A DNA stretch of 41,713 bases, from the IMG/VR virus record IMGVR_UViG_2778261064_000003, positions 1 to 41,713 of that record, one strand, 5' to 3'. Made by a program: the position numbers and the translations under genes. Position 1 is the first letter of the stretch, and each line of letters starts with the position of its first letter. Below, piece by piece: positions 30,300-31,329 of the stretch. The notes beneath the pieces are model-generated. The model saw only the letters and a program-made list of their open reading frames with translations, was not told the origin of the DNA and searched no databases. This DNA is from a virus (lineage: Duplodnaviria; Heunggongvirae; Uroviricota; Caudoviricetes).

Positions 30300-30475
30300 C
30301 AGTAGTATCAAATATTTTTTCGTTTTTAGCTTTATTTGCGACAGTAGTATCAAATCGCATGTTGTGTGCATAACACTGTTTTATGTCATAACTGTTTGTT
30401 TTATCCCATCAAATCCCGTTTAATCCACTTTCCTCCCGGATTTTTCAGCAGTATCAAATGATTTACCTCTTCATA
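30300..30475. repeat. Left terminal region of the Mu-like element with three direct copies of CAG(T/C)AGTATCAAAT (30300..30313, 30342..30355, 30447..30460), candidate transposase binding sites
   Basis: Seen directly; the innermost sequence (CCGGGAGGA...TGGATTA...CGGGAT.TGATGGGAT) resembles the Mu attL region as I recall it. Confidence 0.6.
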
Positions 30476-30754
30476 CGGGATATCGCTCATCACCGGATAA
30501 ATCCGGGACTCCATCCACGAATCCAGCTCTGAATCCGGCACCTGAGCAGGCAGGAAAACTTCAATATGCAGCTCCGCCTGCCAGGTATCGCTGTCCAGCT
30601 CTTCGCCCGTGTATTCAGCGCCGGTGAGATAAACGGCAATTGCCGGAAAATCCGCCTCATCAAAAACAGCGGGGCGACCATCAAAAAGCGTCGCCCCGGT
30701 GTCATGCTTCTCCAGTGCATCCAGTACGGCTGCACGGAGTTCAGTATGTTTCAT
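30401..30754 (-). pseudogene. U: Lambda tail gene U interrupted by the Mu-like insertion (first 93 codons are U, last 24 come from the insert)
   Basis: Translation MKHTELRAAVLDALEKHDTGAT...RIYPVMSDIP matches lambda U as recalled, then diverges at 30476/30475 into element-end sequence. Confidence 0.85.
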
Positions 30755-31329
30755 CGCTTTATTACCATTCTCAGTTGATGCTGCAGCGCATAGCCCAGCT
30801 CTTTCGGAAGACGTTCACGCCGTATCCGTTCAATATTCTGTTTAAACGCCGTGGTAAGCGGCACCGCCATCGGGATTTTCACCACATCAATGGGGTAACG
30901 GTTTTTCCCGGCCACACGCTGCATGACATGCCACCGCCCATTTTTCAGTTGCTGAATAAACGCGCCGGGAATACGACGGTTACCCACCACAAGCACGCTG
31001 CCGCCACCTTTCAGGGATGAACGCTGCCCCTTTTTACGACGCCTGCGGCGGGACAGGACAACCCGCGCATTACCCAGCTTGATTACGGGCAAATCCCCCC
31101 GGTTAACTTTGATTCTGGCCTGCGGGTTTTTGACCGTGGCCCTTTTCAGCCTGGCCCTTTCCTTTACCAGTTTCCGGCGTACCTTTGTCTCACGGGCAAC
31201 CTGTGACGCCGACTGCGATATCGCGGATGAAGCAACGCGGTTAATGGCCATTGCGGCGGCACCGGGCACCGCCGTTTTGCTGATACGGCTGAGGTTTTCA
31301 ACGGCCTGCTCAAGACCTTTTATGGCCAT
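30751..31329 (-). CDS. Z: Tail completion protein Z
   Basis: 192 aa, same length as lambda Z and in the lambda position. Confidence 0.9.
   Translation of the reverse strand: MAIKGLEQAVENLSRISKTAVPGAAAMAINRVASSAISQSASQVARETKVRRKLVKERARLKRATVKNPQARIKVNRGDLPVIKLGNARVVLSRRRRRKKGQRSSLKGGGSVLVVGNRRIPGAFIQQLKNGRWHVMQRVAGKNRYPIDVVKIPMAVPLTTAFKQNIERIRRERLPKELGYALQHQLRMVIKR

Follow-up and report, generated by a model that had tools for sequence, protein, structure and literature searches.

Mu-like phages nested in lambdoid prophages are known from Escherichia coli. In 13 closed genomes of Shiga toxin-producing E. coli (STEC) of clonal complex 119, 6 of 10 Mu-like phages were found to reside in mobile elements, and several Shiga toxin (Stx) phages carry one (Nakamura et al., Microb Genom 2023, PMC10132054). 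Likewise, work on the O157 Sakai prophage pool (PMC2669165) and a review (PMC6379469) describe the inactivation of prophages by insertion, frameshift and inter-prophage recombination at shared genes. Here we describe a 41,713-bp stretch of DNA (‘the window’), which is the entire contig PTRP01000035.1 of the short-read draft assembly GCA_002965585.1 and in which a Mu-like phage has inserted into U, the tail-terminator gene of a lambdoid prophage in an E. coli-type genome. We suggest that this insertion was probably followed by a deletion between two directly repeated copies of the tail-fibre gene stf, which would have fused both prophages into one. The Stx2c- and Stx1a-converting phages LC727881 and LC727895 resemble the window in that a Mu-like phage is nested in a lambdoid one, with a transposase 77% identical to that of the window. 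Moreover, their inserts share with the window's clade (i) the repeat ATCATTTGATAC located 13 nt from the terminus, (ii) a right end terminating in TA, and (iii) an annotated 4-bp target duplication. They differ in that nothing is missing from the inserts, which retain their two ends along with the duplication, whereas in the case of the window the right end and the tail genes of the host phage appear to be deleted; furthermore, their left end reads TG instead of TA, and another gene was targeted. The ‘grounded’ or defective prophages of the Sakai type are similar insofar as they decay through insertions, frameshifts and recombination at shared tail-fibre genes. The history proposed here is distinct from such cases in having two steps, with a single deletion that would account for the loss of both the Mu right end and the lambdoid tail.

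The window divides at a single base into a lambda-type late region, which occupies the minus strand from 41713 down to 30476, and a Mu-like phage, which extends from 30475 down to 1. The break falls within U, of which the 5' 93 codons (30476..30754, minus strand; 100% identical to intact U alleles) are followed by a fusion tail of 24 codons and a stop (30401..30475, minus strand), where the U frame reads into the left end of the Mu-like element, the terminus 5'-TATGAAGAGG starting at 30475. In the resulting open reading frame (ORF) of 117 amino acids (30754..30401, minus strand), residues 1–93 match positions 1–94 of the 130 positions of the Pfam profile Phage_tail_U with E=1.8e-42. (Pfam assignments here and below derive partly from a dedicated profile search of the window's proteins and partly from precomputed Pfam annotation of called genes.) The DNA from 30476 to 30900 is 100% identical to the intact U/Z loci of many complete E. 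coli genomes, and every one of these matches ends at 30476: after the shared sequence GATATCCCG, the intact U gene of strain IAI1 reads GCACTGTCAG, and the window reads TATGAAGAGG / TATGAAGAGGTAAATC. A preliminary description, made from the sequence alone, had placed the switch at 30476/30475 after 93 lambda-like codons and the stop 24 codons further on, and both the Pfam match and the abrupt end of the 100% identity bear out this placement.

The base at which the window breaks is exactly the one at which the conserved terminus starts in 13 independent insertions of the same element family, and U and the Mu end have no sequence in common which could mediate a mis-join. The fused 117-residue ORF was, in addition, encountered on 5 contigs, which belong to NCBI and Logan assemblies and represent several samples. 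Since the break coincides with the terminus of the family and the same fused ORF recurs in several independent assemblies, these findings speak against an assembly chimera, a concern which the preliminary description had itself raised. A chimera that joins a lambdoid prophage to a Mu-like prophage located elsewhere might be invoked because the window's contig stems from a short-read draft and the two partners belong to repeated phage sequences; we nonetheless assign it a next to negligible probability, given that the contig also continues past the junction for 11 kb in one direction and 30 kb in the other. Hence, the left junction is a genuine transposition junction of a Mu-type phage inserted in U of a lambdoid prophage. 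It was not detected in any complete RefSeq genome of E. coli, which indicates that it is lineage-specific; the 30-mer spanning it was likewise absent from the GTDB species representatives, and both results are uninformative about the lineage itself. Packaging of host DNA into a virion, as a different source of the flanking sequence, was rejected because 11 kb flank the left end, as compared with the ∼50–150 bp which Mu is known to package.

What follows the Mu-like genes at the other end is evident from sister contigs, which were located by means of the exact gp47 protein of the window: DAPGOY010000030.1 (60 kb; hereafter L016), PTRY01000050.1 (L017) and a third contig, L018. All three exhibit 0 mismatches to window positions 1–12397 (12,397 bp) and to each other. 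L017 belongs to the same assembly as PTRY01000076.1, the contig which carries the U junction, and when mapped on the window these two contigs abut with an overlap of ∼130 bp. Past window position 1, the sister contigs continue through the end of a 269-residue tail-fibre gene, a tail-fibre assembly gene (TAP), a 749-residue Stf-type fibre gene and a DUF4376 gene. L016 alone then reaches, 140 bp beyond the DUF4376 gene, the serine tRNA gene tRNA-Ser(tga) (serT) and hyaABCDE, and this serT and hya sequence is 100% like that of the serT prophage of strain N96. In intact Mu-like relatives having the same fibre module (STEC383 and RM9088), com, mom and the right end come directly after DUF4376. Neither com, mom nor the right end is present in the window or the sister contigs, the sequence of the latter beyond window position 1 being also free of any copy of the terminal repeat, and the window, L016 and L017 are devoid of homology to U 3'/V/G/T/H of IAI1. 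The preliminary description had expected the 3' end of U and V to resume beyond the element. The sister contigs instead run from the Mu fibre genes into stf, DUF4376, serT and hya, so that, of its reading as a Mu-like phage nested in U, the transposition event stands (on the terminus common to 13 insertions) and the intact nested element is not supported.

Comparison of sliding identity along L016 locates the transition from one phage to the other. Between positions 12200 and 13700, L016 is 93–100% identical to the Mu-like prophage of RM9088 and less than 60% identical to the serT lambdoid prophage of N96; from 13700 to 14600 it is ∼96–100% identical to both; and from 14600 to 16300 the identity is 99–100% for N96 and 70–90% for RM9088, with no match to the latter after 15800. 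The Mu/lambdoid switch thus lies within a stretch of stf of ∼0.9 kb which is common to both phages. That the Stf and DUF4376 genes following TAP are purely lambdoid was considered and rejected, because the Mu-like phages of STEC383 and RM9088 carry the same genes; it is for this reason that the crossover is placed inside stf. As a separate observation, L016 positions 13010–15259 contain an intact chimeric fibre ORF of 749 residues, which is Mu-type towards its N terminus and lambdoid (N96-type) towards its C terminus.

Based on this evidence we consider the following history probable. A Mu-like phage, making use of its own A transposase and B ATPase, would have transposed into codon 93/94 of U of a lambdoid prophage, which presumably resided at serT, a tRNA gene adjoining hya, and would have done so co-directionally with the lambdoid late operon. 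With this orientation the stf gene of the Mu-like phage and that of the lambdoid phage become direct repeats. Homologous recombination between the two stf genes, presumably of the RecA type and taking place within the ∼0.9 kb shared at 96–100% identity, may subsequently have deleted ∼2.5–3.5 kb of the Mu part (the rest of stf, the DUF4376 gene, com, mom and the right end) together with ∼12–15 kb of the lambdoid part (the 3' end of U, V, G, T, H, M, L, K, I, J, lom and the 5' part of stf). The predicted product is a single immobile remnant with the order lysis–cos–head genes–U'::Mu left end...Mu tail genes–chimeric stf–tfa-like gene–attR–serT, and the same deletion would have occurred in the window's own strain.

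Several observations weigh against this history. The window stops at L016 position 12397 and thus before the crossover, so that the deletion is out of view in the window's own contig. L016 is the sole contig reaching serT; that it is collinear with the U junction is deduced from coordinates and place counts instead of read sequence. The crossover is bracketed to positions ∼13700–15800 of L016, most likely 13700–14600, the exact parental alleles being unavailable, and neither the left arm of the lambdoid prophage nor its int and attL are found on any contig examined. Moreover, shared tail-fibre repeats are classic sites of mis-joins in short-read assembly; yet three assemblies take the same path.

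These points bear on the idea that the nested prophage is intact, i.e., that a complete Mu-like phage resides in U and that its right end, the duplication, the 3' end of U and V to J are located elsewhere in the draft assembly, on separate contigs. In that case, the sister contigs reaching serT would be mis-joins across the stf repeat, or would come from descendants that lost the segment. Apart from the window ending before the crossover, this idea draws on (i) the repetition of the stf segment in other prophages, with partial matches in every genome searched, (ii) the breaks of both the window and a Logan contig near L016 positions 12290–12400, and (iii) the documented existence of two-ended nested Mu-like phages in Stx phages. 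We nevertheless judge it unlikely. Three assemblies cross from the Mu-type to the lambdoid-type stf identically, with 0 mismatches, and two copies of ∼0.9 kb should break contigs at ∼13700 and not allow passage. The start of the 60-kb contig, furthermore, coincides with the end of the window: gp47 is located at 39238–40314 of DAPGOY010000030.1, which places the start of this contig at window position ∼41634, 79 bp short of where the window ends, and the contig therefore probably spans the region from the lysis genes to hya in one piece. One remaining contig of 50–200 kb with the exact A protein is grouped at the same place as the window contig and is otherwise unaccounted for. Finally, no right junction is found in complete RefSeq genomes of E. 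coli; the predicted right junction GCGCGCTTTA(N0-1)CCCGGCACTGTCAGATT is likewise absent from the collection genome_contigs and from the JGI metagenome contigs, although these results are uninformative about the lineage itself. As for the contig breaks, both ends of the window (1 and 41713) match breaks in further assemblies of the lineage, a Logan contig ending ∼110 bp away on the left and the 60-kb contig starting ∼79 bp inside on the right, which suggests that the coinciding ends represent repeat boundaries in tail-fibre and lysis genes common to other prophages of the genome.

Recombination might alternatively have involved the stf gene of a different lambdoid prophage, namely the one at serT, with the U-bearing prophage located elsewhere. 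This would have led to an inversion or a large chromosomal deletion, and a reciprocal product carrying the Mu right end may then survive elsewhere. E. coli genomes do contain multiple lambdoid prophages whose stf segments are near-identical, at up to 9 places per genome, and the attL side of the lambdoid prophage was not seen. However, a normal serT lambdoid prophage, as in N96, has the order U–V–G–T–H–M–L–K–I–J–lom–stf–DUF4376–serT–hya, and the fused order lysis–cos–head–U'...stf–DUF4376–serT–hya is collinear and co-oriented with it, as is predicted for a deletion within one prophage. An inter-prophage event would, by contrast, require matching orientation along with the loss or inversion of the intervening chromosome, and we regard it as improbable.

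Two further mechanisms were considered and set aside. Inversion of a Mu G segment by gin as the cause of the contig break, or a site-specific deletion by Gin/Pin, is not consistent with STEC383 and RM9088, which are without an invertase or inverted fibre genes and whose fibre region contains only the 269-residue, TAP, Stf and DUF4376 genes before com and mom. Adjacent deletion promoted by Mu through intramolecular replicative transposition is known to leave a complete, two-ended Mu. Independently of these considerations, the Mu-like lineage has a lambda Stf-like fibre and a DUF4376 gene in place of the invertible G segment and gin.

The deletion between the stf genes would have immobilized both prophages. 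From the established biology of Mu, a one-ended element is expected to form no transpososome and thus neither to transpose nor to replicate. The lambdoid part had been described as tail-defective on account of its broken U; that outcome holds, and its cause was understated, since the whole tail region, beyond the truncation of U, appears from the sister contigs to be deleted. Even prior to the deletion, as one would expect from the biology of lambda, the 37-kb insert between head and tail genes would have placed the genome far beyond the size that can be packaged from cos to cos.

The termini of the element depart from what is known of Mu. Relatives sharing its left end were identified in 12 complete E. 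coli genomes and many draft contigs, at unrelated sites including glpT, ydcO, sslE, an epimerase gene, ydcV/patD, the ydh region, aga and others. All 13 independent left junctions begin with TAT(G/A)(A/G)AGAGGTAAAT, the preceding base being variable. In five complete relatives the ends read 5'-TAT...AGAGGTAAATCATTTGATAC and GGTATCAAATGATTTTGCGCGCTTTA-3', with the repeat located 13 nt from either end; all five right termini read ...CTTTA-3', and inverted copies of the repeat are present there. Without exception these five are flanked by a 4-bp target duplication (TGTT, AGCC, GTGA, CGAA and TTAA). Consistently, the depositors of LC727881 annotated a 4-bp duplication around its insert, whose ends read TG...TA; in the searchable library, no paper on Mu-like phages was found to describe the 4-bp duplication or the TA ends, and this GenBank feature alone records the duplication. 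The left end of Mu, examined as a control, reads TGTATTG. TG...CA termini, a 5-bp target duplication and inverted copies of the 14-bp left-end motif at the other end had been proposed as hallmarks to be looked for. The first two do not apply to this clade, and owing to its TA ends and 4-bp duplications such tests would fail even for intact members; the inverted copies are present in the relatives but in neither the window nor the sister contigs. For the insertion in the window, the original duplication is predicted to have been CCCG. We consider it likely that transposases of this clade truly act on TA-3' ends with a 4-bp stagger, and the combination of TA ends and 4-bp duplication is the least familiar aspect of this clade.

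The lambdoid part of the window includes, around and upstream of cos and up to the contig end, bor, a DUF3950 gene and Rz/lysis genes (39400..41713, minus strand; Pfam Lambda_Bor, DUF3950 and Phage_lysis). The lambda cos cohesive-end sequence GGGCGGCGACCT has an exact, single match at 39293..39304 (minus strand), upstream of Nu1, and is followed by the lambda-type packaging, head and head–tail joining genes Nu1, A, W, B, C, D, E, FI, FII and Z (30751..39115, minus strand), which match Phage_Nu1, GpA_ATPase/GpA_nuclease, gpW, Phage_portal_2, Peptidase_S49, HDPD, Phage_cap_E, Packaging_FI, Phage_attach and Minor_tail_Z. The region from Nu1 to Z is 97% identical to the IAI1 prophage. With cos, the Nu1/A terminase and W–B–C–D–E–FI–FII followed by Z–U, the arrangement is that of a lambda-like phage in which U is cut at codon 93, in agreement with the complete head gene set and cos site initially recognized upstream of the junction.

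On the other side of the junction, the 14-bp motif ATTTGATACTRCTG is present in three copies, all on the minus strand and with none elsewhere in the window (chance expectation 0.01; at least three copies in 0 of 100 shuffles). Repeat 1 is located at 30446..30459, repeat 2 at 30342..30355 and repeat 3 at 30300..30313, corresponding to positions 17–30, 121–134 and 163–176 of the element. The left end of Mu is laid out as L1, a gap, and L2–L3, and the three window repeats, starting at element positions ∼17, 121 and 163, show the same architecture and spacing; by their arrangement they are putative L1-, L2- and L3-like transposase-binding sites. The motif itself is unrelated to the Mu consensus. 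Just inside repeat 1, window positions 30409–30452 (AAAAATCCGGGAGGAAAGTGGATTAAACGGGATTTGATGGGAT) are clearly homologous to positions 24–66 of the Mu left end (AAAAAACCGGGAGGACATTGGATTATTCGGGATCTGATGGGAT), an interval which we take to be where the pac site of Mu has been placed. By contrast, the terminal repeats and the transposase of the element are unrelated to those of Mu.

The repeats are followed by a Mu-like repressor gene c of 194 codons (29658..30242, plus strand; Pfam Phage_CI_repr and HTH_3), which is divergent from the early operon and whose exact protein is also encoded beside the left end in numerous insertions elsewhere in chromosomes. The early operon begins with a ner-like regulator of 78 residues (29281..29517, minus strand; HTH_35, E=4.8e-25) and a distant Mu-type DDE transposase A of 695 residues (27191..29278, minus strand), for which both HTH_Tnp_Mu_1 (PF02316, E=6.9e-6) and Mu-transpos_C (PF09299, E=2.5e-18) score above the curated cut-offs. 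Directly after the transposase gene lies that of a MuB-type AAA+ target-capture ATPase of 317 residues (26163..27116, minus strand; Phage-MuB_C, PF09077, E=2.5e-23, and AAA_22). The three direct repeats and the succession of repressor, Ner, transposase and ATPase partner are thus as first described. The rest of the Mu-like phage in the window (1..26150, minus strand; precomputed Pfam) comprises kil, gp6, gam, gemA, mor, lysis, terminase, portal, F, protease, capsid T, sheath, tube, tape measure and baseplate gp44–48 genes, up to the start of the 269-residue tail-fibre gene, which is cut by the contig end at position 1. A Mu-type morphogenesis set is hence present (Portal_Mu, Mu_F, Mu-like protease, gpT, sheath/tube and gp44–48). 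A perfect 19-bp tandem duplication (CCGCCACCACAACGGAAGC x2; 1064..1101, minus strand) frameshifts the baseplate gene gp48, as is evident from alignment with the intact gp48 of the RM9088 prophage. In the sister assemblies gp48 is either called as two ORFs or absent from the calls; this frameshift is a further sign of decay.

In its gene order, c / ner–A–B–kil–gam...mor–lysis–head–contractile tail, the element is like Mu (Muvirus mu), D108 and SfMu. The region from gam to gemA is 82–85% identical to these phages at the DNA level, the left-end bases ∼24–66 are recognizably homologous, and parts of the early and middle region exhibit 82–89% DNA identity to Mu, D108, SfMu and the Yersinia phages vB_YpM_5 and vB_YpM_6. 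The element differs from Mu, however, in its transposition proteins (A 23% and B 41% identical to their Mu counterparts), in its termini and duplication (TA and 4 bp versus TG/CA and 5 bp), and in its tail fibres, which constitute an Stf/DUF4376 module without G inversion or gin. The closest sequenced free phages are vB_YpM_5 and vB_YpM_6 (MT374853/4; PMC10434027), with 95% identity of the A protein (as compared with the 77% given above for the inserts of the Stx phages) and 89% DNA identity in the early region. Their similarity shows that the transposition module is that of viable phages. They are unlike the window in that they match ∼25% of a 25-kb query (megablast), have a different late region and represent virion genomes instead of a trapped prophage. 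The late and tail-fibre module is common, at ∼92–94% identity, to Mu-like prophages such as that of STEC383, whose right end is the canonical one of Mu; combined with a different transposition module, this indicates that the phage of the window is a mosaic. The STEC383 prophage itself (L020, positions 4780–4960) has a late/tail-fibre module ∼92% identical to that of the window and yet ends in ...TTTTCGTGCGCCGCTTCA, and this pairing indicates that transposition and morphogenesis modules reassort freely among the Mu-like phages of E. coli.

One may speculate that the fused element is active, serving as a fixed lateral-transduction launcher for the serT–hya–app region. Apart from c, every Mu gene is located downstream of the lambdoid late operon and in the sense orientation relative to it, and headful packaging of Mu starts at its left end. 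If the speculation were true, Q-antiterminated late transcription after induction of the lambdoid part would read through U' and turn on the trapped Mu programme, and the one-ended prophage would package ∼39 kb rightwards into serT–hya–app from its retained left end, a putative pac. We regard this as decidedly improbable.

The window is a new instance of a kind already documented: Mu-like insertions in lambdoid prophages have been published, and the locus opens no new question. Its value lies in providing a clean, datable case of the mutual destruction and entrapment of prophages, in which one transposition and one recombination, the latter at a tail-fibre gene common to a myovirus and a siphovirus, would have given rise to a remnant unable to move. 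For the annotation of prophages the example is of practical relevance, as prediction tools would call a single ‘intact’ prophage of ∼60 kb having two head gene sets. Finally, a clade of Mu-like transposases occurring in E. coli and Yersinia, and characterized by TA ends and a 4-bp duplication, departs from the textbook values of Mu and could be of interest to transposition biochemists.

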